A stretch of DNA of 64,000 nt, from the sequence record MN850645.1. One strand, given 5' to 3'. A program made the translations under genes and the position numbers. This DNA is from Escherichia phage outra. Below are positions 13,585 through 26,755 of the stretch, one piece after another (within the stretch, counting starts at the first letter, position 1; each line of letters opens with the position of its first letter). The notes under the pieces are model-generated. The model saw nothing but the letters and a program-made list of their open reading frames with translations, was not told where the DNA came from and made no database searches.

Positions 13585-15660
13585 ATGAAACAGGCTATTT
13601 TTACTGTAACTCGAAATACGAGAGTAAATGCCAGTTCATTCAGCTATAAGACCGTCGATGGAACGGCGGTCGCTGGTAGAGATTATGTAGCTAAACAGGG
13701 AACAGTAACGTTCCCTTCTGATGCAGATTCTGCTACTGTAGTGGTTGATGTATATGAACGTCCGGCAAACTCTTTAGATCTTTATTTTACTCTTGAGATT
13801 ACTAGCATAAGTCAAAATAACATGATGATCAACGAAGAAATTCGTTGTGTTATTACGACTGATCAATCGAATACAACCCCGCTAACTTGGCCTGTTGTGA
13901 AGTCTAGAATGTTTGATCCTAAGTTTTGGACAATAGATTCTCAAGCAACAGAAAGTTGTTCTATTATCTCTAATGGTGATTCTTTCACAGCAAGAATGGT
14001 TAATAGGACAGTGGCTGGTCTTGCTGGGATTATTTGGTCAACTTACGATAAATATGATCACAAAGGATTAGGCTACCAAGAACATTCTGACTTAAGTAAA
14101 GAGAAACTTTGGTTTAAAATGGAACTTAGTCAAGGTGTTCCTGGATTAAAAGAAGAAAAATTAATGCCATCCTTAACAGTGACACTGAAGGATGAAACAG
14201 TTCATTATGTATCTCTAAACTTTTATGCAGAAGAAGTTTCAGAGGACGGTAAAACAGCAATAATCAAATTAGATTTCTCAAATTTAAAATCTGGGCCAGA
14301 AAATGATATTGTTGTTGACACTACACAGATAGATAACATGTTCTTCTCCTTGATTTCCGCAAGGTATCAAGAAATTGAAGATGTTATACCAGTAGACAAT
14401 ATAGATCTTTCCTTTAAGTTTACCATACTAGAGCCTGATACTGGTTACAGTATGATGAATATGGGTAATTTAAATGTTCCGGCGCACACCATAAGAATGT
14501 GTACATCTTATGATGATATGTATAACCTAACACCAGAGCGAGTTATTTCTAACACCTATAGATTAGGTTATAGAGATATGATTAACCATTATAATGGTAT
14601 GTCACACTATTATCAATTTAGTTGGGATGCCGGATCTAATAAATGGGCTTTGAATAGAACAGAATATTTAAACCCAGCAACAGAAGCCTGGTTTGATAAT
14701 TTCCACGCTAATGCAAAAGCTATGGGCTACACAGTAATGAACTCCTTAAGTTTTGAACTTATGAGTACAGTGTGTCCTGTAGAATGGGTACAACATACTT
14801 GGAATGATGATCTGGCTGCTACAGGTTATGAGCCACCAAGTTATGTTTTATCTCCTTCAATTGATGAAGGGATGAATTATTTACAAGGTGTAATAAATAA
14901 GATAGCTTCTATATCCGCTGCCAATGATCTTCCTGTTATTATTCAGGTTGGTGAACCGTGGTGGTGGTATAACACAGCTACCAATCTACCGTGTATCTAT
15001 GATTATACAACCAAAGTTGCATTTAATAATGAAACTGGGTTATATGCACAAGATGTTGGTACAGTTAAGAATTATAAAACTGGTACACCATATGATGAAT
15101 ATTATGCATTCCTATCTAAAACATTAGGACTGCGTGTTGCTAAATTTGCAACAGATACTAAATTAGCCTATCCTGGAGCTAAAGTTACATTATTACCATT
15201 TGTGCCATCCATTTTAGGTAACGGTATGATGGAGTTTGTTAACTTCCCTAAAGATCATTATATCCCAGAAAACTTTGACTTTTATTGTTCAGAATGTTAT
15301 GACTGGTTGTTGGAAGGTCAGATGGAAAGATCTTTCGACGCTATCAAAATACCTAATGAGCAACTAGGTTTTAGTTATGATAAGATACATTATCTTGCAG
15401 GGTTTGTTCCAGATGCAACTCTAGCACCATTATATGGCTTTGATCCTGAATCAGACTACAGAACATATTTGTGGAAAATGATTATAGGTAATATTGTATT
15501 GAATGACCAGAAGTTTGTTGGTTTGTATCAATACATATGGGCTTATCCACAAATTATGGCAGATTCATTAACTGTTCTTAATTCAAAATCCCAAGTTTTT
15601 TATATGGGTAACGTACCTCTGAATGTCTTTTTACAAGATACAGTATATGTTTCTTCTTAA
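13585..15660 (+). CDS. large baseplate / tail structural protein (691 aa)
   Basis: RBS AAGGAAAA; long ORF in the baseplate operon; no motif recognised. Confidence 0.45.
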   Translation: MKQAIFTVTRNTRVNASSFSYKTVDGTAVAGRDYVAKQGTVTFPSDADSATVVVDVYERPANSLDLYFTLEITSISQNNMMINEEIRCVITTDQSNTTPLTWPVVKSRMFDPKFWTIDSQATESCSIISNGDSFTARMVNRTVAGLAGIIWSTYDKYDHKGLGYQEHSDLSKEKLWFKMELSQGVPGLKEEKLMPSLTVTLKDETVHYVSLNFYAEEVSEDGKTAIIKLDFSNLKSGPENDIVVDTTQIDNMFFSLISARYQEIEDVIPVDNIDLSFKFTILEPDTGYSMMNMGNLNVPAHTIRMCTSYDDMYNLTPERVISNTYRLGYRDMINHYNGMSHYYQFSWDAGSNKWALNRTEYLNPATEAWFDNFHANAKAMGYTVMNSLSFELMSTVCPVEWVQHTWNDDLAATGYEPPSYVLSPSIDEGMNYLQGVINKIASISAANDLPVIIQVGEPWWWYNTATNLPCIYDYTTKVAFNNETGLYAQDVGTVKNYKTGTPYDEYYAFLSKTLGLRVAKFATDTKLAYPGAKVTLLPFVPSILGNGMMEFVNFPKDHYIPENFDFYCSECYDWLLEGQMERSFDAIKIPNEQLGFSYDKIHYLAGFVPDATLAPLYGFDPESDYRTYLWKMIIGNIVLNDQKFVGLYQYIWAYPQIMADSLTVLNSKSQVFYMGNVPLNVFLQDTVYVSS

Positions 15661-15671
15661 GGATCTCTAGT

Positions 15672-15917
15672 ATGAGAAAATTTTTAATAGGTATGTTTTG
15701 TACATATCCTGATAATAAAGTCAGTTCTACTAAAGTTTGGAATGCTATTGGTATGATTGTTATGTCCAGTATGTTTATTTATTTGGGAATTGATAAAGAA
15801 ATTCCTGAATGGATGGGCTGGGCTTTTGTTTTTATGATCACACCATCCAGACTAATGAAGAATTTAATAGATTTACGTTGGGGCAGATCACCTGCCCCTG
15901 ATAAGGAGGATAACTAA
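15672..15917 (+). CDS. small membrane protein (two predicted TM helices)
   Basis: 81 aa with two hydrophobic stretches (IGMIVMSSMFIYLGI and WMGWAFVFMITP); its stop overlaps the J-like start (TAATG). Confidence 0.4.
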   Translation: MRKFLIGMFCTYPDNKVSSTKVWNAIGMIVMSSMFIYLGIDKEIPEWMGWAFVFMITPSRLMKNLIDLRWGRSPAPDKEDN

Positions 15918-18049: not shown

Positions 18050-19033
18050 ATGGCAAAGCCACAATACTACCCTGACTGGGCGACACAAACAGTAACCCTC
18101 CCAGGAACGGGAAACACAAACAAGATTAGACCAAAAGAAACCATCCGTAATGTTGGTATGGACTTTGGTCAGATTATGACTTGTGAAGAAATGAACTGGA
18201 TCTTAAACAATATTGGGTCTTGGATTCGCTATATGCAAGATGAATTCTTCCCAACATTGCCTACTACATATCTTCCTATAGTCGGTACTAAAATTACAAT
18301 GGCAGGTGATGCTACAGGTGAAGTCACATGGAATGGTAATGCTGCTGTAACATTATCTATTCAAGTAGTAGATAACAGCCATAATCACTTATCAGCTAAC
18401 ATTACAGACGCAACATCAAACCAAGTTGTAGGGAATGTCCTTGTTAAGCGTGATAATGGTGGTGCTATCTATGCAGGTGATATTTACACTTGTGGTACAG
18501 GTGCTACAGATCCTGCAACATTATTTTTTAGAAACTACAACGGACAAACAGTAGGTAATATGTCCTCTGAACCAGGTGCAGGTGGTCAACTCTATATTTA
18601 TAGAATGAACCCATCAACTGGAGGAACATCTTGTGCAGTCCGTTTATATGATGCAGGTTATGTTTTAATAGACAACCCTCGTTCTAATTCTGGTCAAGAT
18701 ACTGGTAATGGTAATGCTCTTGTAAGATTAGACTATCTTAACTCCAGACTAAACTCATTGCAAAGCACACTGCAAAATAATATTAACAACGTTAATAGTA
18801 ACTTGCAAGGCCAAATTAATAGCATTAACAATAGAGTTTCTTCTGTTGTGTCTGCTATCCGTCTTGGAACACGTATCCAAGCTGGTGTATCTGAGTCTCG
18901 TTTCTATGCTGGTCACGTGATCACAGGTTGGGGTTTTGGTGACAAGAAAGAACTTCGTGGTGCTTGGTATTGGTCAGCCCCGCTACAATATTATATTAAT
19001 GGTAGCTGGATAACAGTAACCAACGTTTCGTAA
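18050..19033 (+). CDS. tail fiber protein
   Basis: 327 aa; RBS AAGGAG; Gly/Asn/Thr-rich beta-type sequence; followed by a tail fiber assembly gene. Confidence 0.6.
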   Translation: MAKPQYYPDWATQTVTLPGTGNTNKIRPKETIRNVGMDFGQIMTCEEMNWILNNIGSWIRYMQDEFFPTLPTTYLPIVGTKITMAGDATGEVTWNGNAAVTLSIQVVDNSHNHLSANITDATSNQVVGNVLVKRDNGGAIYAGDIYTCGTGATDPATLFFRNYNGQTVGNMSSEPGAGGQLYIYRMNPSTGGTSCAVRLYDAGYVLIDNPRSNSGQDTGNGNALVRLDYLNSRLNSLQSTLQNNINNVNSNLQGQINSINNRVSSVVSAIRLGTRIQAGVSESRFYAGHVITGWGFGDKKELRGAWYWSAPLQYYINGSWITVTNVS

Positions 19034-19042
19034 GGAGAGTCT

Positions 19043-19594
19043 ATGAAAAAAGACGTTATTTTTACAGGTTTTGAATTGTATGAACCAGAATTAACAGAAG
19101 AAAATATTCTTTATCTTTCTGTTGGTGGTGGTTTTTTGCAAGACAAAGATGGTAACGACTGGTATCAGCTTCAAAAAACTTTGATGGTAGAATATCCCGA
19201 CGCTTATTTTATTACCTTAGATGATAATAATATTGTACGTGGTGCTACTAAAGATGTTACTACCTATTTCCCTGCCGGACAATCTATTTTAGTTACATAT
19301 AATGTACCAGATAAAATAGAAGATGAAAGTAACATTGGCTCTTGGCAATATGTTGAAGGTAAGTTTGTTCCTCACAATAATCTTGCTATTGAAGATGCTA
19401 CTCTTAAGTTAGAAAAGGAGCTAACTTGGGCTACGAATCAAGTGTCTGCGATTCAAGATTTAGAGGAATTACAAGGTTTATCTGAAGAACAAAAAGATTG
19501 GTTAGGAAAAGTTAAACTCTATCGTGCAACATTAATTCAAATTAACGTTGAAGATGCACCTAATATAACTTGGCCTACAAGACCTAAGAAATAG
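19043..19594 (+). CDS. tail fiber assembly protein (Tfa / gpG-like)
   Basis: 183 aa; C-terminal LYRATLIQINVEDAPNITWPTRP resembles the conserved Tfa-family C-terminal signature; located after the fiber gene. Confidence 0.7.
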   Translation: MKKDVIFTGFELYEPELTEENILYLSVGGGFLQDKDGNDWYQLQKTLMVEYPDAYFITLDDNNIVRGATKDVTTYFPAGQSILVTYNVPDKIEDESNIGSWQYVEGKFVPHNNLAIEDATLKLEKELTWATNQVSAIQDLEELQGLSEEQKDWLGKVKLYRATLIQINVEDAPNITWPTRPKK

Positions 19595-19603
19595 GGGCAA
19601 TGT

Positions 19604-19945
19604 ATGGAGCTAACAGAAGTATGGGATATCGCTAAAGAGGCGATTATCCCTCTTATTGGCGTAATCTGGGTGGTCTTCAAACAGAAGATAGATGATATGG
19701 CAAGTGATTTGGATAAAATGGAAGACAAATACCGCGAACTAGAAAAGAAGTTGGTGTTTGTTGAATCCACTTATGCTACCAAAGCAGAACTTGCTCAAAT
19801 GCTTAACCAGATCAACTCTACATTAATGGCAAATAATACTGCCTTAGAACAGAAGATTGAAAAAATAATGGATTTAAAAAATGCTCCTGTTCAATTAATG
19901 CTAGAGGAGATTACAAAGCGCACACAAAGTAAGGACAAAAATTAA
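19604..19945 (+). CDS. hypothetical protein with N-terminal TM segment and coiled coil
   Basis: 113 aa; hydrophobic IIPLIGVIWVVF then a heptad-rich charged region; stop overlaps the tailspike start (TAATG). Confidence 0.4.
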   Translation: MELTEVWDIAKEAIIPLIGVIWVVFKQKIDDMASDLDKMEDKYRELEKKLVFVESTYATKAELAQMLNQINSTLMANNTALEQKIEKIMDLKNAPVQLMLEEITKRTQSKDKN

Positions 19946-22359
19946 TGGCGAATTTTCCAACATATCCTGCTACGACACTAGAACAAGGTGTTGATCTGGT
20001 TATATTCTCGTCTAACCAGATGCATGATGTTATTAATGGAGATGCTACAGCAACTGTAGAAACCGAAACAGGTTTAATACCTACACTGCGTAAAGCACTT
20101 GTTGATAACTTCTTCTTTAAGAGTCCTGTTGCTTGGTCAGCAGGATCAACTGAAACTGTATTTAACCAGTTACGTTATTTTGAAAACGGTATCTTGAGTG
20201 GGTACTATTATGCCCCATCTGCCACTACTGCTAACCCTGTACCTATGCAGGGCACACCTGTAGGGGATAGTAACTGGACTCTGTACGCTCTTAAAACTGA
20301 ACAGTTAGCTTCAGATGTGTATCCTTGGTATTTTAAAGGTGCTACAGGATATGAAACAGAAATCAGTCCTCCTTATATCTTTGATAATGCTATTGTCACC
20401 ATTAACGGTGTAATTCAGATTCAAGGTGAAGCATTTACTATCAAAGATAGTAAAATTATTCTGGCAGAACCATTAGGTTTAGATCCGTCTACTGGTCTAC
20501 CTAACAAATTGTTTGCTTTTATTGGTAAAACAACAGCCTCTACTTCTTACGTAGAGAAAAACCTTTTGTCATCCACCACTGGTGCAGCAATGGTTGGTCT
20601 TCCATCTGGAGGCAACCTGTTACAAGCTCAATACTTTGTAACGCCTGAGCAGTTTGGTGCAATTGGTGATGGAGTTACCGATGATACTCAAGCAATTTTA
20701 AAAACCATTACTTTCGCTAACACGAATAACATTCAAGTACGTGCAGATAAGAATTATAGATTCACAAGCTCAATTGCTATGTCTGGTATTCGTTGGTATG
20801 GTGGTACATTCACTGGTAACGGTGGAACAATGATTTCTACTGTGTCCTGTTGGATGGAAAACGTTCGCTTTGAAAAATGTTATGTTAAGATGTTAGGTGG
20901 TGATTGCCGATTCTATCGTAATATCTTCTCCAACGCAACATCTACAGCAGCATTCTTAATGCAAGCAATGACAAGTGAAGGTACGTTGGACTTCAGTTAC
21001 AACGAAATGTATGGTTGTAAATATGCGATCCTGCAACAAGGTACTGGAGAAGTAATGACCTACGGGCGTTACTCTAACAACTATATTCACGATATTAAAG
21101 GTGATGCTATTGAACTTAACGTAGTTCAAAAACACTACACTGAAGGTTTGATTATCGAGAATAACCACATTGCTAACGTAGATGCTTCTGGACAAGGGGC
21201 AAACTGGGGTATTGGTATTGGTGTAGCAGGTAGTGGCCCATATGGTGTTGATGTTCCTGACTCACAATATGTACGTAATTTCAGTATCGTTGGGAATAGG
21301 GTTTACAATTGCCGTCAATGTCTACACGTTGAAATGGGTAAAAACTTCACAATACGTGATAACGAAGTTTATCCTAACACAGCAGTTTCAACAGGTACAG
21401 GTTTAACTACTTGTGGTGTTGCATTATACGGATGCCAAGATTTTGAAGTTGATGGTTTAACTGGTTATCTGCTTAATGATCCGTCTGTTTCAACACGCAT
21501 GGTCTTTATTGACTGGGGTGTTAACAGTGGAAGATATGCGGGGCCACCAATTAACTTTACAATTAAGAATTTGGATATTCCAGAATCTTCAATTGAGATT
21601 GCAACGGCTGGATCAGATGCCTGGGAAAACTCTACAATTGTTAGTAACATCAATTGTAATGTTTTTAAATGGCGTGGGCTACCATCTAGCTCTACCTTTA
21701 ATAATATTCGTTGCCGTAGTATTGACTTTATTGGTCAACACGGAAGCGGAGAAGGAAGTGGTGGCGGTTTCTATACTCGCAGCCAATTCACGTATATGAA
21801 GTGGGTAGGATGTACAGCACTTAGCGGAGATGAAACAACAGTTTCTTTTGCTAAAATCTACACTGATCGTTGCGATCAGGTTGGAAATAACTTTGGTGTT
21901 CCAACTGCTGTTGATGGTACAGGTCATCGTGGGCCAGTTTTAACTACTATTTCTGAACAATATTTTACAGCTTATGATGAATTCCCAGGTGGGCGTGAAT
22001 TCCCTACTGGAACAGTTATTCATTGTGCAAGCGGTAAAAAACATGTTGTTACAGTAGGTGGTGCTTTCTTTAGTGCCAACGAGAAAATAAAAGCAACTGT
22101 TACAGGTCAAACCTATCTACAGTCTAATGCTTTAAACTGGGCTAGTAATGGCTACGCTAAAGCAGCAGGTACTAAGATTGTTATTCCAGGTGCAGGTGCA
22201 AATGGCGGCGATCTTGTGACAACTATAGCACGTGCTACATACGTGACAAATAGTTTGTACACAATAGATATTGCAGATCCAATTGTAACACCTACAGCAG
22301 AGAATACACAAATTAAAGCTCTGAATCCTGTTACTTTTGTTACTGTCAATAATGCTTAA
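19945..22359 (+). CDS. tailspike protein with pectate-lyase-like beta-helix (putative polysaccharide depolymerase)
   Basis: 804 aa; PEQFGAIGDGVTDDTQAILKTI matches the N-terminal signature of pectate-lyase-fold depolymerases; Gly/Asn-rich parallel beta-helix-type sequence. Confidence 0.65.
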   Translation: MANFPTYPATTLEQGVDLVIFSSNQMHDVINGDATATVETETGLIPTLRKALVDNFFFKSPVAWSAGSTETVFNQLRYFENGILSGYYYAPSATTANPVPMQGTPVGDSNWTLYALKTEQLASDVYPWYFKGATGYETEISPPYIFDNAIVTINGVIQIQGEAFTIKDSKIILAEPLGLDPSTGLPNKLFAFIGKTTASTSYVEKNLLSSTTGAAMVGLPSGGNLLQAQYFVTPEQFGAIGDGVTDDTQAILKTITFANTNNIQVRADKNYRFTSSIAMSGIRWYGGTFTGNGGTMISTVSCWMENVRFEKCYVKMLGGDCRFYRNIFSNATSTAAFLMQAMTSEGTLDFSYNEMYGCKYAILQQGTGEVMTYGRYSNNYIHDIKGDAIELNVVQKHYTEGLIIENNHIANVDASGQGANWGIGIGVAGSGPYGVDVPDSQYVRNFSIVGNRVYNCRQCLHVEMGKNFTIRDNEVYPNTAVSTGTGLTTCGVALYGCQDFEVDGLTGYLLNDPSVSTRMVFIDWGVNSGRYAGPPINFTIKNLDIPESSIEIATAGSDAWENSTIVSNINCNVFKWRGLPSSSTFNNIRCRSIDFIGQHGSGEGSGGGFYTRSQFTYMKWVGCTALSGDETTVSFAKIYTDRCDQVGNNFGVPTAVDGTGHRGPVLTTISEQYFTAYDEFPGGREFPTGTVIHCASGKKHVVTVGGAFFSANEKIKATVTGQTYLQSNALNWASNGYAKAAGTKIVIPGAGANGGDLVTTIARATYVTNSLYTIDIADPIVTPTAENTQIKALNPVTFVTVNNA

Positions 22360-22363
22360 TTAA

Positions 22364-22383
22364 AAAGGGGCGAAAGCCCCTTT
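22364..22383 (+). terminator. terminator hairpin after the tailspike gene
   Basis: 8 bp stem AAAGGGGC-GAAA-GCCCCTTT, 5 nt after the stop; short U-tract. Confidence 0.5.
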
Positions 22384-22400
22384 ATAAAAGGAGTAGTAAA

Positions 22401-24362
22401 GTGATTTTAACACGTCCAAATAGTGCCATTGCAGACATGGTAGAGTCTCGCTATAGAAAGCGTAGAAGTTTTGCAAGTGGTTTTACCTTAAGAGATGCTC
22501 GTGAAGCATTGCTCTTTGAAACTGACGGTAACTACTATCAGTGGAAAGGTTCTCTACCTAAAGTTGTACCTGCTAACTCTACTCCTACATCTACTGGAGG
22601 TATTTCAGATACAGCTTGGAAAAATGTGGGTAATGCAGATGACATTGCTCAAATAGAATCAGAATTAGATGCTATTGAAGCTGAAATTGAAGATCTTAGA
22701 GAATCCATTCCAGAAGCTGGTAAATCAGCTTACCAGATTGCCGTAGACAATGGTTTCCAAGGTACTGAGACAGAGTGGTTGGCTTCTTTAAAAGGTGATC
22801 CAGGTGCTCCATTAAAGCTGCTAGGGACGCTATCTAATACCAACCAATTACCTACAACTGGAAACAATGCAGGAGATGCATGGATTGTAGGCGAGAATAT
22901 GTATGCTTGGGATGGTACTGCTTGGAGAAAAGTAAACTCACAGGGGCCAGAAGGTAAATCAGCTTATCAAGTTTGGCTTGCAGCAGGAAACCAAGGTACA
23001 GAACTAGATTATCTTGCTTCAATTAAAGGTGATAAAGGGGAGCCTGGCCCAGAGGGGCCACAAGGTGTACCAGGTAACAATGCTAATGGTTTTGATTACC
23101 AAGGTGCAGCTAATTCCGTTTCAGATCTTCCTTCTGCATCTCCTGGAAACACATCTCAAGCATGGAGTATTGGTACATATCTATACGTGTCAAACGGTGT
23201 AGAATGGATCAATATGGGTGCTATAGTGGGGCCAAAAGGAGATAAAGGCGACAAAGGAGATAAGGGTAACACTGGTGATTCAGCTTATCAAGTCTGGTTA
23301 AACGCTGGTAACGTTGGTACTATTGACGAATATATTGCCTCTCTGAAAGGAGAAAAAGGTGATAAGGGAGACAAGGGTGATCAAGGTGAGCAGGGTATAC
23401 AAGGCTTGACGGGGCCAACTGGTGCAGGGTTGACCATTATTGATATTCTGACTGACACTTCTGAACTACCACAAACTGGAGAAGATGGTGATGGTTATCT
23501 GATCAATAATGAACTTTGGGTTTGGTTGCAAGGAGCCACACAGTGGACAAATGTTGGTCGTTTAGCTGGTACTCCAATCACTGCAAAAGGACACGTTGCG
23601 TCTGCAAGTGCACTTCCTCCTACATCCAATTACGGTGATGCTTATCTAACGGAAGACACAGGTCATCTTTACATTTACACCTATGATGAACAAACTCAAA
23701 CTGCTGAATATGTAGATATGGGCAGTTTGAAAGGTGATAAGGGTGAGAAAGGTGACGCTGGTACTAACGGTACAGACGGTGCAACTTGGATTGTTAAAAC
23801 AACAGATCCAATCTCTAGTGATGGTAAACAAGGGGATTATGCCTTTAATATCTCCACTGGCGAGGTGTTCTTAAAAACATCTGCAACTGTCTGGACTTCT
23901 CAAGGTACACTACCTAGCATTACAGATGCACCTAGTGACGGTAAGATCTATGCTCGTAAAGATGGAGCATGGGAAGAACTCACCAGTTCTGTAGATGGTC
24001 AAGATATAGTTCCAACAAAAGTAACAACTAATTTTATAGAGGTTACAGCATATACCAACAACTCTGTTACAGGTGACTGGACACCTCCAGGAACACATAA
24101 CATGAATGTGTTGAATCTTACTGGTAACTCTACTATAAAAGCATGGCCTGGTGTCGAAGATAGCACAAAACCTAAACCATTCTCTGCAATAGTTTATCTT
24201 ATCCAAGATGCCACTGGAGGTCGTACTGTTACTTTAGATCCATCTTATAAAGTAATTGGTTCTAGTGATATTAATACAGATCCTAACGGAGTAACAATAC
24301 TACAACTAACATATTGTGGTGTTGGTGATTACGTGGATGCTATTGTTGCTAAACGCACATAA
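22401..24362 (+). CDS. tail fiber protein with phage-fibre repeats and collagen-like Gly-X-Y repeats
   Basis: 653 aa; GTG start after AAAGGAG; three copies of a SAYQ...GxQGTE...(W/Y)LASLKG repeat; several GDKGDKGDKG-type collagen-like runs. Confidence 0.7.
   Translation: MILTRPNSAIADMVESRYRKRRSFASGFTLRDAREALLFETDGNYYQWKGSLPKVVPANSTPTSTGGISDTAWKNVGNADDIAQIESELDAIEAEIEDLRESIPEAGKSAYQIAVDNGFQGTETEWLASLKGDPGAPLKLLGTLSNTNQLPTTGNNAGDAWIVGENMYAWDGTAWRKVNSQGPEGKSAYQVWLAAGNQGTELDYLASIKGDKGEPGPEGPQGVPGNNANGFDYQGAANSVSDLPSASPGNTSQAWSIGTYLYVSNGVEWINMGAIVGPKGDKGDKGDKGNTGDSAYQVWLNAGNVGTIDEYIASLKGEKGDKGDKGDQGEQGIQGLTGPTGAGLTIIDILTDTSELPQTGEDGDGYLINNELWVWLQGATQWTNVGRLAGTPITAKGHVASASALPPTSNYGDAYLTEDTGHLYIYTYDEQTQTAEYVDMGSLKGDKGEKGDAGTNGTDGATWIVKTTDPISSDGKQGDYAFNISTGEVFLKTSATVWTSQGTLPSITDAPSDGKIYARKDGAWEELTSSVDGQDIVPTKVTTNFIEVTAYTNNSVTGDWTPPGTHNMNVLNLTGNSTIKAWPGVEDSTKPKPFSAIVYLIQDATGGRTVTLDPSYKVIGSSDINTDPNGVTILQLTYCGVGDYVDAIVAKRT
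22700..23800 (+). repeat. intragenic tandem repeat region (three phage-fibre repeats and three collagen-like Gly-X-Y blocks)
   Basis: Protein repeats at about aa 108-135, 187-215 and 293-320; Gly-X-Y runs near nt 23230-23280, 23350-23410 and 23730-23780. Confidence 0.6.
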
Positions 24363-24365
24363 TCA

Positions 24366-24390
24366 AAGCCCCTTCGGGGGCTTATTGTTT
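24366..24390 (+). terminator. rho-independent terminator after the collagen-like fiber gene
   Basis: Stem AAGCCCC-TTCG-GGGGCTT followed by ATTGTTT. Confidence 0.6.
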
Positions 24391-24401
24391 AAGGAGATTA
24401 A

Positions 24402-26288
24402 ATGTATCCTATTCCTTTATTTATGTCAACAACATCAGCTTCAGTAGTAACAGCTACATCTATAACCACTTCCTCTATTGGCATTGCAATAGTTGGTAGT
24501 AAAAAACAACTGACATATACAGTTACACCCGAAGATGGTGCGTTATTTGATATAGCTTTTTCATCTTCAGATAATACCAAAATGGTTATAGATAATAATG
24601 GTATGATGGAGTTTGTTGCTGAAGGTGGTTTTGATGCAATAATGACAGCTAAAAATAATTTAGGTGCTGTCTTAACTGATCAATCTGGTGGTTATGCTTC
24701 AGAATTAAGTGTGTACACTGAAAGTCTATCGGCTATGGATGTAGGCACTACTCAACAGTTGGTTGCTACAATCAGTCCAGAAGGTGCTAAAGACCTTCCA
24801 GATATGGTAATTACATACACCACAACAGATCCAGAAGTAGCTACTGTAAGCCCTACAGGATTAATAACTGCTCTTAAAGATGGCAATTGCCGTATAGGTT
24901 GTACTGCAACGTATCAAGGAACAGTTGTGGCCTCTGATAGTTCTTATTTAGGTGTTAATGCTATTCCTGTTATTTCTAATGTAACAGCCGTGGCAAACAG
25001 TTATGGAGACGTTCGTGTTGCTTGGGATGTAACTGATCCACTAGACGGTGATACTTATACTGTAGAAGTATTAGATTTAAGTGATAATAGTGTTCAGTGG
25101 ACTACAACAACCACGAATACTTACGCTTACTTTGATATCTCTGACTCTATTCCTCTTTATGGGTTTGCTCCAACATACCTTAAAATTAGCGTTAAGAGCA
25201 CCAAAGCAGCAGCCGTTATCTTTAATAACTCAATAGCTACAGATGATTCGTTCATTAAAGAAGTTATTGTCTTTGCTGGACAAGATAACGTAAATGCACA
25301 CTTTACAGAATTATCTGGTGCAAATAAAGCAGTAATGAGTAGCACAACAACCCGTAATGCATATGCTACGCAACGTGGTTTAGCAAATGCTGAAGTTCTT
25401 CCGTTAAATACAGCTTCTGGATCATCAGCAGCAGATAAATATGCTGACGATAAAGCTGGAACAGGTACACCAGACAACTACTGGTATGATCTGGATAACA
25501 CAGCAGATGGGCCATGCTTAACTAACTTTATCACTAAAGTCACACCTTATGCAAGTAAGGTTAAAGCAATTATTTGGGGACAAGGTGAAAATGATGCTGT
25601 ATCAGCATCTTCGACTGTTGCAGGTAGGTACAGTAACACTACACGTTACCATGATGCTACGATAGCTATCTTTGATAAGATGCGTACAATAGTTCCTGCT
25701 TCTCAAGCAAAAATTGTTTGGCAGATCCTAGGACGTTCTTATTTATATGGTGTAGAAGTTAATGGTGTGGATTGGCAGAAGTACAGAAATGTACAAAGAA
25801 CCATCTCTACAGCACGTGATGATGTTATCATTGGTTCTTGGGTAGATGGTGCTGAACGTTACAGTGGTTATGTTTATGAAGAAGGTATTGATGGTCGTAT
25901 CCATTATATTTCTTCTGTATATCAAACAGCAGCTACAAAACTTGCTAAATCAGCAGCAGACGGTACAGATTTAACATCAACACCACCTGTTTGGGTTGAT
26001 ATGTCTGTTCCAACAGGAGGAGCCGCTGTAAGACAAGCTAACCAAGATGCAATTATTTCTTGGGAACCAGCAGGATATACCAAACATTACTTCCGAAATG
26101 TAAACGTCCTCACAGCAGCAATTCTTACAGAACAAACTCTTGATACTAACACTTACACATTTACTTATGCAGATCAGGTTGAACAATACGGGTTTGCAGC
26201 AGGTACAGCAGTGTTTGATGTTGCACACTATGATGCTGATAATGACGTGTTATCACCTCTTGTCAGATTTACAGTCAATGTTACATAA
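24402..26288 (+). CDS. tail fiber/spike with SGNH/SASA-type carbohydrate esterase domain
   Basis: 628 aa; RBS AAGGAGA; motifs VIVFAGQDNV, IIWGQGENDA and DGRIHY resemble the GQSN / QGExD / His blocks of sialate-O-acetylesterase-type esterases. Confidence 0.6.
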   Translation: MYPIPLFMSTTSASVVTATSITTSSIGIAIVGSKKQLTYTVTPEDGALFDIAFSSSDNTKMVIDNNGMMEFVAEGGFDAIMTAKNNLGAVLTDQSGGYASELSVYTESLSAMDVGTTQQLVATISPEGAKDLPDMVITYTTTDPEVATVSPTGLITALKDGNCRIGCTATYQGTVVASDSSYLGVNAIPVISNVTAVANSYGDVRVAWDVTDPLDGDTYTVEVLDLSDNSVQWTTTTTNTYAYFDISDSIPLYGFAPTYLKISVKSTKAAAVIFNNSIATDDSFIKEVIVFAGQDNVNAHFTELSGANKAVMSSTTTRNAYATQRGLANAEVLPLNTASGSSAADKYADDKAGTGTPDNYWYDLDNTADGPCLTNFITKVTPYASKVKAIIWGQGENDAVSASSTVAGRYSNTTRYHDATIAIFDKMRTIVPASQAKIVWQILGRSYLYGVEVNGVDWQKYRNVQRTISTARDDVIIGSWVDGAERYSGYVYEEGIDGRIHYISSVYQTAATKLAKSAADGTDLTSTPPVWVDMSVPTGGAAVRQANQDAIISWEPAGYTKHYFRNVNVLTAAILTEQTLDTNTYTFTYADQVEQYGFAAGTAVFDVAHYDADNDVLSPLVRFTVNVT

Positions 26289-26291
26289 ACA

Positions 26292-26313
26292 AAAAGGAGC
26301 CAATAGGCTCCTT
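26292..26313. terminator. bidirectional rho-independent terminator between convergent modules
   Basis: Hairpin AAAGGAGCC-AAT-AGGCTCCTTT with T-rich flanks on both strands; lies between the last + gene (ends 26288) and the last - gene (ends 26324). Confidence 0.65.
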
Positions 26314-26323
26314 TTCTTTTATC

Positions 26324-26755
26324 TTAATCAGTGAAAATTACGCTCACATCTTCTTTAGAGAAGAGTTTATGATCTTCACCTTTTGTCTCAAGAGTTTCAT
26401 ACAGGTTAAGAAGTTCTGAAACATCTTTCTCTACTAGTTTCTTCAATGTTGCAATTTTCTGTTTGCGATTTTTAATACGTTCAGCTACAACCTTACGTTG
26501 GTATCCGGCAGTACGATAACCTGAGAAAGTTACACCAGTGAGACTTGCAGTTACAGGATCGTAATGACGTTCAATCTGAAATTTATTAAAAGGTACAGCG
26601 TCATCACGAATAATCTTACCGCCATTACTTACTTGACGAAGACCAGTAACTTGTTCTAGTCGTGCCATAGAAATCTTTGGAGACAGACCAGAGTCCAGGT
26701 TCATACCGTTGTTAATCAGTGCTTTCAGGGTGATTTTGCTGTTCAGTGTACTCAT
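26324..26755 (-). CDS. hypothetical protein co-transcribed downstream of the DNA methyltransferase
   Basis: 143 aa; GGAGGA 9 nt upstream; start lies 44 nt inside the 3' end of the MTase gene; no motif recognised. Confidence 0.4.
   Translation of the reverse strand: MSTLNSKITLKALINNGMNLDSGLSPKISMARLEQVTGLRQVSNGGKIIRDDAVPFNKFQIERHYDPVTASLTGVTFSGYRTAGYQRKVVAERIKNRKQKIATLKKLVEKDVSELLNLYETLETKGEDHKLFSKEDVSVIFTD

Follow-up and report, generated by a model that had tools for sequence, protein, structure and literature searches.

Three tandem tail genes of the phi92-like phage outra encode a colanidase-type tailspike, a collagen-like fiber and a multidomain protein whose SGNH-fold module lacks the nucleophilic serine

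A multivalent adsorption apparatus was reportedly described for the myophage phi92 by Schwarzer et al. in 2012 (J Virol 86:10384), a study that later phi92 papers cite. The multivalent, 'Swiss army knife' adsorption machinery of phi92 and its relatives has been treated in several papers (PMC5380687, PMC8594841, PMC11984140, PMC10269720, PMC13450770), and a 2026 electron cryomicroscopy (cryo-EM) study identifies fiber I as gp143 and the downward-pointing fiber III as gp147, with gp150 and gp151, the latter of uncharacterized function, as poorly fitting candidates for the unassigned fiber II (PMC13450770). Here we describe the corresponding locus of Escherichia phage outra (sequence record MN850645.1). 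In the 64,000-nucleotide stretch that was analyzed, hereafter the window, three consecutive plus-strand open reading frames (ORFs) make up the whole span 19945-26288: ORF1 (19945-22359, 804 amino acids, ATG start), an ortholog of the phi92 gp150 colanidase tailspike; ORF2 (22401-24362, 653 amino acids, GTG start with GGAG 7 nt upstream), an ortholog of the phi92 gp151 fiber; and ORF3 (24402-26288, 628 amino acids, ATG start), the short allele of a multidomain tail protein. All three match PHROG tail families (E = 1e-269 for ORF1 and E = 0 for both ORF2 and ORF3). We propose that the span is very probably the distal end of the tail/baseplate operon of a phi92-like myophage and that it encodes three of the several host-recognition proteins of the published multivalent apparatus.

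By nucleotide identity the window is a Justusliebigvirus sequence (phi92-like myophages, Stephanstirmvirinae): the 6.3-kb span is 99.9% identical to phage vB_EcoM_ESCO8 and 97-99.9% identical, over at least 80% of its length, to 54 Justusliebigvirus genomes. The ORF order from 15917 to 26755 matches the loci of phage Paula and of phi92 (gp145-gp154) gene for gene, with amino acid identities to phi92 of 100% for gp145 and gp146, 98.2% for gp147, 81.4% for gp148, 99.1% for gp149, 99.5% for gp150 and 98.2% for gp151. ORF1-ORF3 close a long rightward tail/baseplate block that also encodes Baseplate_J and DUF2612-type baseplate proteins, a short fiber and a Caudo_TAP chaperone. ORF3 converges with a leftward block, which opens with a small gene of no known function (26324-26755, minus strand) followed by a DNA methylase gene, and the sign of the GC skew flips after ORF3, where the two blocks meet. 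The window thus has the gp145-gp154 gene order, a bidirectional terminator and a downstream methyltransferase gene in common with phi92, but differs from it in two respects: the third gene is intact (628 amino acids) where phi92 carries split gp152 and gp153, and the gp143 endosialidase gene of phi92 has no counterpart. The short fiber upstream of the span (18050-19033), which a preliminary description of this DNA had already recognized, is the gp147 ortholog (98.2% identity), and the chaperone gene is next downstream of it.

The preliminary description had also placed three distinct receptor-binding proteins in tandem here, and the three ORFs fit that layout. Comparison of their N-terminal anchors, which it had proposed, uncovered no common one: pairwise BLASTP of the N-terminal regions returned no significant similarity (best E = 0.12), and a shared N-terminal adaptor was rejected on that result. 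As their N-termini are unrelated, the three proteins should therefore dock at different sites on the virion.

The expectation that the first protein is a polysaccharide-degrading tailspike is well borne out. ORF1 differs from phi92 gp150 at four of 804 residues (99.5% identity; I282V, S528N, A555S and A711D, from window to phi92), with no functional difference expected, and its residues 180-804 align with the whole crystallized chain deposited as 'Bacteriophage Phi92 gp150' (PDB 6E0V/6E0W, E = 0). The PHROG family that it matches at E = 1e-269 is 6117, 'colanic acid degradation', and gp150 itself is reported to cleave colanic acid at its beta-1,4 Glc-Fuc linkage (PMC13450770). ORF1 would thus act as a tailspike that hydrolyzes colanic-acid exopolysaccharide. 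It comprises an N-terminal anchor (residues ~1-180), a catalytic body (~180-700) and a C-terminal TSP_Ig-like domain (704-792; Pfam E = 2e-14). Residues 12-126 match the N-terminal part of the phiTE tail fiber as seen in a baseplate map (chain 9cuy_g, E = 9e-18), a resemblance that fits direct attachment of ORF1 to the baseplate; by analogy with its gp150 ortholog, the protein would be held on the virion by this N-terminal domain of its own. Of the pectate-lyase assignment made earlier, the family match did not hold, as Pectate_lyase_3 (PF12708) stays below threshold and covers residues 236-294 only (E = 0.018, 15.3 bits against a cut-off of 27), while the fold itself is plausible from the solved ortholog and from the phi92 record, which annotates gp150 with a phi29-gp12-type tailspike fold.

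ORF2 is 98.2% identical to phi92 gp151 and is covered over its full length by PHROG 15437, 'tail fiber protein' (E = 0). It begins with a Tail_spike_N anchor (PF18668; residues 11-77, 22431-22631, plus strand; E = 3.6e-21, 75.5 bits against a cut-off of 25), a segment that also matches the N-termini of several tailspikes of known structure (9vvr, 5w6h and 4oj5 among them). This anchor is of the type found in N4 gp66, G7C gp66 and CBA120 TSP1, but where those proteins have a beta-helix enzyme behind it, ORF2 has a shaft of collagen-like repeats and a small knob. A short heptad-like stretch leads from the anchor to the repeat region (residues 107-462, 22719-23786, plus strand), which was recognized by reading the translation and by a regular-expression scan. 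There, a unit of about 28 residues, (K/D)SAYQ...G.GT...(W/Y)(L/I)AS(L/I)KG, occurs three times (at residues 109, 187 and 294), and 'LP..G.GDAW...W' beta units alternate with four G-X-Y runs of 6, 6, 9 and 6 triplets (residues 210-227, 277-294, 317-343 and 445-462). The earlier description of a collagen-like fiber is upheld by these repeats and by an above-threshold Pfam Collagen match (PF01391; E = 7.4e-8, 32.5 bits against 27.2), whereas the Phage_fiber_2 repeats that it had also named find no Pfam match even at E <= 10.

Downstream of the shaft, residues 505-653 of ORF2 (23913-24359, plus strand) hold a foldon-like motif, ITDAPSDGKIYARKDGAWEEL (residues 505-530), and a C-terminal globular domain of about 120 residues. 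The motif resembles the foldon sequence of T4 fibritin, and Fibritin_C scores slightly under its cut-off (E = 0.0011-0.0016, 19-19.5 bits against 21). Residues 526-653 match the C-terminus of PHROG 4549, 'tail fiber' (E = 6e-39), the N-terminal part of which matches ORF1, a small sign of module shuffling. Together, the collagen-like, foldon-like and tailspike-anchor features suggest that ORF2 is trimeric: its shaft of fiber repeats and collagen-like triplets would end in a clamp resembling a foldon and, at the C-terminus, a small knob, the presumed binding tip for a surface ligand, without enzymatic activity.

The third protein, ORF3, matches PHROG 32204, 'tail protein', and is built from five successive domains: two Big_2 domains (residues ~20-190; Pfam E = 1.9e-13), a predicted FN3-like domain (191-282), an SGNH/SASA domain (283-522) and a second predicted FN3-like domain (523-628), with no Pfam family for either FN3-like domain. 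A full-length AlphaFold2 (AF2) model, the source of both FN3-like labels, shows all-beta N- and C-terminal domains around an alpha/beta middle, but rests on a shallow alignment, with a predicted local distance difference test score (pLDDT) below 50 in the SGNH region, and was excluded from fold searches. The structure model contains globular domains only, and Pfam yields no coiled-coil, collagen or fiber-family match in ORF3, a dedicated coiled-coil prediction not having been run; no feature that would bear out the earlier description of this protein as a fiber was detected, while its SGNH/SASA domain is borne out by the fold and by its relatives.

The SGNH (SASA/CE6-like) domain (25248-25967, plus strand) was identified by AF2 modeling, Foldseek and profile searches. 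An AF2 model of residues 283-522, built on 22 diverse homologs, reaches a pLDDT of 95.8 and a predicted template-modeling score (pTM) of 0.92. Searched against the PDB with Foldseek, it returns 93 matches at E <= 0.001, led by N4 gp65 (TM 0.78, E = 7e-12) and followed by CE2, CE6 and GDSL esterases and PatB; the top 50 matches listed all have a probability of 1.0, and nearly all of them are CE2, CE6, GDSL or PatB-type SGNH enzymes. Neighbors in BFVD include phage SGNH tailspikes. A word-index homolog search with the C-terminal half of ORF3 gave two proteins and was replaced by an exhaustive HMMER search with residues 265-628, which gave 75 cluster representatives. The aligned family displays the blocks GQSN, GSSA, WAQGE.DA and (I/V)HY, by sequence the SGNH signature in its SASA (CE6-like) form, and the family profile matches the CE6 structures 2APJ and 1ZMB. 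Pfam SASA (PF03629) recognizes 17 of 22 family members (best E = 1.6e-13), whereas ORF3 of the window scores below threshold (17.2 bits against 24.8, E = 0.004), so that the direct SASA match implied by the preliminary description fell short.

The top-ranked structural match is a receptor-binding protein. N4 gp65 (PDB 9LC0, 9YF4), the NfrA-binding non-contractile tail sheath of a podovirus, is a protein of 1382 residues and ten domains with two tandem SGNH-like modules, whereas ORF3 carries a single SGNH module behind Big_2 domains and belongs to a myovirus. The ORF3 SGNH module and the beta domain that follows it are homologous to gp65 residues 429-603 and 744-1067 (chain 9lc0_I; E = 2e-25 to 1.5e-27, the latter with phmmer; family profile E = 1.5e-59), and further beta domains match gp65 residues 1082-1276. 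Block I reads GESQ in the first gp65 module and GQDN in ORF3. ORF3 may accordingly be pictured as a beads-on-a-string, Ig-like protein carrying an SGNH/SASA-fold module like those of gp65. In the literature on the phi92 group that we found, this wider homology to the SGNH-like modules of gp65 is not noted.

ORF3 has the fold, block III (WxQGExD) and block V (HY) in common with SASA/CE6 SGNH hydrolases and phage SGNH tailspikes, its own blocks being FAGQDN (I), SGSSA (II), WGQGENDA (III) and RIHY (V), but it differs from the hydrolases at the decisive residue. Where the family motif GQSN holds the nucleophilic serine, the window encodes Asp295 (codon GAT, 25284-25286, plus strand); among 61 aligned homologous domains, 41 have Ser in this column. 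The substitution is shared by all 36 members of the clade: block I is FAGQDN in each of the 32 Justusliebigvirus orthologs and FAGGDN in each of the four Av-05-like homologs (40-46% identity). In the latter, the Gly of block II is gone from all four sequences and the block V His is replaced by Gln in two; ORF3 of the window keeps the block V residue, His501, and has Gly at position H-3, as do most members of its phage sub-family. Clade-wide loss of the serine, together with decay of blocks II and V in the distant members, argues that the catalytic machinery was lost long ago while the fold was retained, and a dN/dS (ratio of nonsynonymous to synonymous divergence) of about 0.2-0.3 over few substitutions fits a maintained function. 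We found no description of the Ser-to-Asp substitution in the literature on phi92-like phages.

Deacetylation of surface polysaccharide by this apparatus, which the preliminary description had put forward, is doubtful because the nucleophilic Ser is Asp in every ORF3 ortholog checked, and deacetylase activity of ORF3 is on these grounds unlikely. Judging from the motif pattern, the SGNH module is most likely a non-catalytic, glycan-binding (lectin-like) domain. Going further, and tentatively, the ORF3 family may be a conserved pseudo-esterase, whose serine disappeared (GQSN to GQDN) ahead of the split between the Justusliebigvirus and Av-05-like lineages and whose SGNH domain persisted as a lectin that recognizes an O-acetylated surface glycan of E. 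coli. The one member examined structurally, phi92, has a broken copy; on this view, wild-type virions of the genus would bear a surface component so far unseen, possibly a part of the unassigned fiber density. O-acetylated colanic acid, the substrate of the ORF1 tailspike, is the obvious candidate ligand.

The distal part of ORF3 is also where the locus varies. Orthologs in the databases are mostly 939 residues long, and the 628-residue allele of the window recurs in ESCO8, VEcB and muut; it stops exactly where the longer allele goes on (...NVT|AGT...), and the downstream terminator is identical for both. The additional 311 residues of the long allele (phage Paula, 18342-19274 of its locus) have no Pfam match, but a PDB sequence search did find homology to a phage tail fiber protein (9occ_C, E = 1.4e-19) and to the head-spike fiber of the Rhodobacter capsulatus gene transfer agent (6tb9, E = 5e-14), and, to judge by these relatives, the extension resembles a binding tip. 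Between the window and Paula, synonymous divergence (dS) is about 0.03 over residues 1-522 and about 1.1 over residues 523-628 (25968-26285, the last 106 codons), and the same jump at residue 523 is seen against phage ALITA, which indicates a recombination boundary inside ORF3. In Phapecoctavirus, a Big_2 anchor like that of ORF3 (55-73% identity) is joined to RCC1-type and other C-terminal domains. Modular exchange of receptor-binding genes, as surmised earlier, is therefore supported by the two alleles, their boundary near residue 523 and these domain swaps. Two relatives carry broken copies. The ALITA homolog is split into pieces of 719 and 172 residues. In phi92, gp152 corresponds to residues 1-198, residues 199-272 are deleted, a frameshift lies near residue 335 and gp153 corresponds to residues 335-628; gp152 and gp153 in the phi92 record (NC_023693; 13321-14983 of its locus) are fragments of one gene, with DNA coding for FAGQDN still readable between them.

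A different reading is that ORF3 binds no receptor and is instead a dispensable Ig-like decoration of tail or head, of the Hoc or lambda gpV C-terminal type, lending weak, non-specific adherence to glycans or mucus and leaving two true receptor-binding proteins in the span. Its Big_2 domains match PHROGs of major tail proteins and of a 'structural protein with Ig domain', as well as the Ig domains of small myovirus major tail proteins (45-50% identity); gp152 is annotated with a lambda-V-like fold in the phi92 record; phi92 and ALITA stay viable with a broken gene; and neither Pfam nor the structure model detects trimerization or fiber motifs. We nonetheless consider this reading rather unlikely, since the homologous modules in N4 sit in gp65, which binds the receptor NfrA, the 939-residue allele ends in a module homologous to tail and head-spike fibers, the same type of Big_2 anchor carries other C-terminal domains in Phapecoctavirus, and the C-terminal 100 residues of ORF3 are a recombination hot spot with a dS of about 1.1, all of it behavior typical of host-range determinants.

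ORF3 could alternatively be an active carbohydrate O-acetyl esterase, in which Asp295 or an activated water acts with His501 in place of the serine and the apparatus both depolymerizes and deacetylates its substrate. The confirmed SGNH/SASA fold and family membership would suit such an enzyme, as would the presence of His501 and the WGQGENDA block in the window; GQSN is conserved in most relatives, which are plausibly active, the ALITA GenBank record labels its ORF3 homolog 'tail carbohydrate esterase', and O-acetyl esterase tailspikes are common among phages. Yet the aspartate occupies the nucleophile position throughout the clade, the changes of the block V His in two clade sequences and of the block II Gly in four trace the pattern of a decayed active site, and the window protein falls under the SASA cut-off that its Ser-bearing relatives pass at up to 1.6e-13. 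To our knowledge, no SGNH hydrolase with an Asp nucleophile has been characterized, and we hold an active esterase to be improbable.

Least probable of all is that ORF3 is a second recognizer of the N4 glycan receptor (NGR), on which phi92-like phages depend on E. coli K-12 (PMC8669472, PMC11984140): its homology to N4 gp65 would accord with such a role, but comparative genomics and k-mer models have placed the NGR determinant, the motif GMSHY, in the gp142-type protein (bioRxiv 10.64898/2026.04.02.716166), both this motif and the NCTSP TIM barrel are absent from ORF3 and present in a separate gene of the window (13585-15660, GMSHY at residue 338), and ALITA was isolated on E. coli K-12 despite its split ORF3.

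Several points weigh against assigning the whole span to the host-recognition apparatus, and against a lectin-like ORF3 in particular. AlphaFold models of phi92 gp150 and gp151 misfit the fiber II density (PMC13450770), a result that leaves the branched attachment of the three proteins envisaged in the preliminary description unsupported. The beta-helix of ORF1 is plausible by analogy, from identity to the solved chain and from the phi92 record note. The presence of ORF3 in the virion is itself presumed, our literature search having found no virion proteomics study of the genus Justusliebigvirus, and its breakage in phi92 and ALITA implies that the gene is dispensable on laboratory hosts. The dN/dS of the SGNH module derives from only about eight substitutions. 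Finally, the exchange of Ser for Asp argues against canonical serine-esterase chemistry but is no proof of inactivity, and the window protein does retain His501 and the GENDA block.

The locus was already known and adds nothing new in kind: it is a textbook case of a phage with several receptor-binding proteins that widen its host range, and the Ser-to-Asp change and the homology to N4 gp65 are details of an uncharacterized accessory protein rather than a new kind of system. For annotators, the practical consequence is that 'deacetylase' should not be derived from the SGNH-like domain of ORF3, whose nucleophile is missing clade-wide. As the phi92 copy is broken, structural and host-range conclusions based on phi92 do not cover ORF3, and phages with intact copies (ESCO8, VEcB, Paula, alia) are those in which to locate it on the virion and to look for its ligand. 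The point worth an experiment is whether ORF3 serves as a pseudo-esterase lectin, and where it sits in such phages; the swapping of its tip between the 628- and 939-residue alleles, with a boundary near residue 523, could interest host-range engineers.

With regard to transcription, the preliminary description had given each of the three genes its own terminator. A GC-rich tetraloop hairpin does follow all three, but only the last, at 26292-26315, is canonical with a full U-tract. Directly after the ORF1 stop, AAAGGGGC-GAAA-GCCCCTTT forms a hairpin on both strands (22364-22383), with a folding energy of -14.5 kcal/mol (z = -3.1) on the plus strand and -14.0 kcal/mol (z = -3.7) on the minus strand. 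Its plus-strand tail, AUAAAA, is weak and has almost no U-tract, and the consensus terminator scan does not list the hairpin on that strand; the minus-strand tail is UUUUUAAUU, and the Paula record annotates the element as an opposite-strand terminator. By its tails, it looks the better terminator on the minus strand. The hairpin after the ORF2 stop (24366-24383, plus strand), AAGCCCC-TTCG-GGGGCTT followed by AUUGUUUAAGGAG, is listed by the scan, folds at -13.1 kcal/mol (z = -1.8) and has a moderate U-rich tail, with the ribosome-binding site of ORF3 directly after it. Between ORF3 and the minus-strand gene at 26324-26755, a strong, bidirectional intrinsic terminator (26292-26315) is listed by the scan on both strands, with stems of 10-11 bp and T-runs, and folds at -16.3 and -18.1 kcal/mol (z = -5.5 on both strands); the same element lies downstream of the 939-residue ORF3 allele in Paula.

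The gaps between the three ORFs are 39-41 nt long and hold just a hairpin and a ribosome-binding site, and all three genes share a single orientation. A promoter scan gave 34 hits against a shuffled expectation of 30.9, no excess, and with promoter-like hits at background we propose no internal promoters. The simplest reading of this layout is that ORF1-ORF3 are read from one rightward late transcript: the hairpins after ORF1 and ORF2 would be leaky, attenuating or stabilizing the message while allowing read-through, and the terminator at 26292-26315 would end the unit.

Further upstream, no gene occupies the gp143 slot of the window (15660-15672), where just 11 nt separate the gp142-type gene from the gp144 homolog downstream of it; within the genus, this slot is variable and holds EndoN in phi92, reportedly another tailspike in ESCO8, and nothing in ESCO32 (PMC10269720). 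The gp142-type gene itself (13585-15660, plus strand) encodes Calx-beta, NCTSP_N and TIM-barrel_NCTSP domains (Pfam E = 3.7e-81) and shares homology with both N4 gp64 (E = 1.4e-28) and residues 340-416 of N4 gp65; its GMSHY motif is the one tied to NGR recognition (bioRxiv 10.64898/2026.04.02.716166). Together with ORF3, it makes two separate myophage genes that each carry different modules of the N4 sheath proteins.

Immediately upstream of the span, the tail-fiber chaperone gene (gp148 homolog, 19043-19594, plus strand), at 81.4% identity to phi92 between flanking genes of 98-100%, marks a small mosaic patch. The gp149 homolog that follows (19604-19945, plus strand, 113 amino acids), the stop codon of which overlaps the ORF1 start (ATGA), bears a 'lipoprotein' label in PHROGs and in several GenBank records; it contains zero cysteines and therefore no lipobox, and looks like a hydrophobic N-terminal helix followed by a coiled coil. 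Lastly, the matches to the span include four 98%-identical records (MG065639, MG065656, MG065689 and OK210077) named Campylobacter phage A150, C3 and A110a and Serratia phage KKP_3264, host labels that may reflect contamination or mislabeling.

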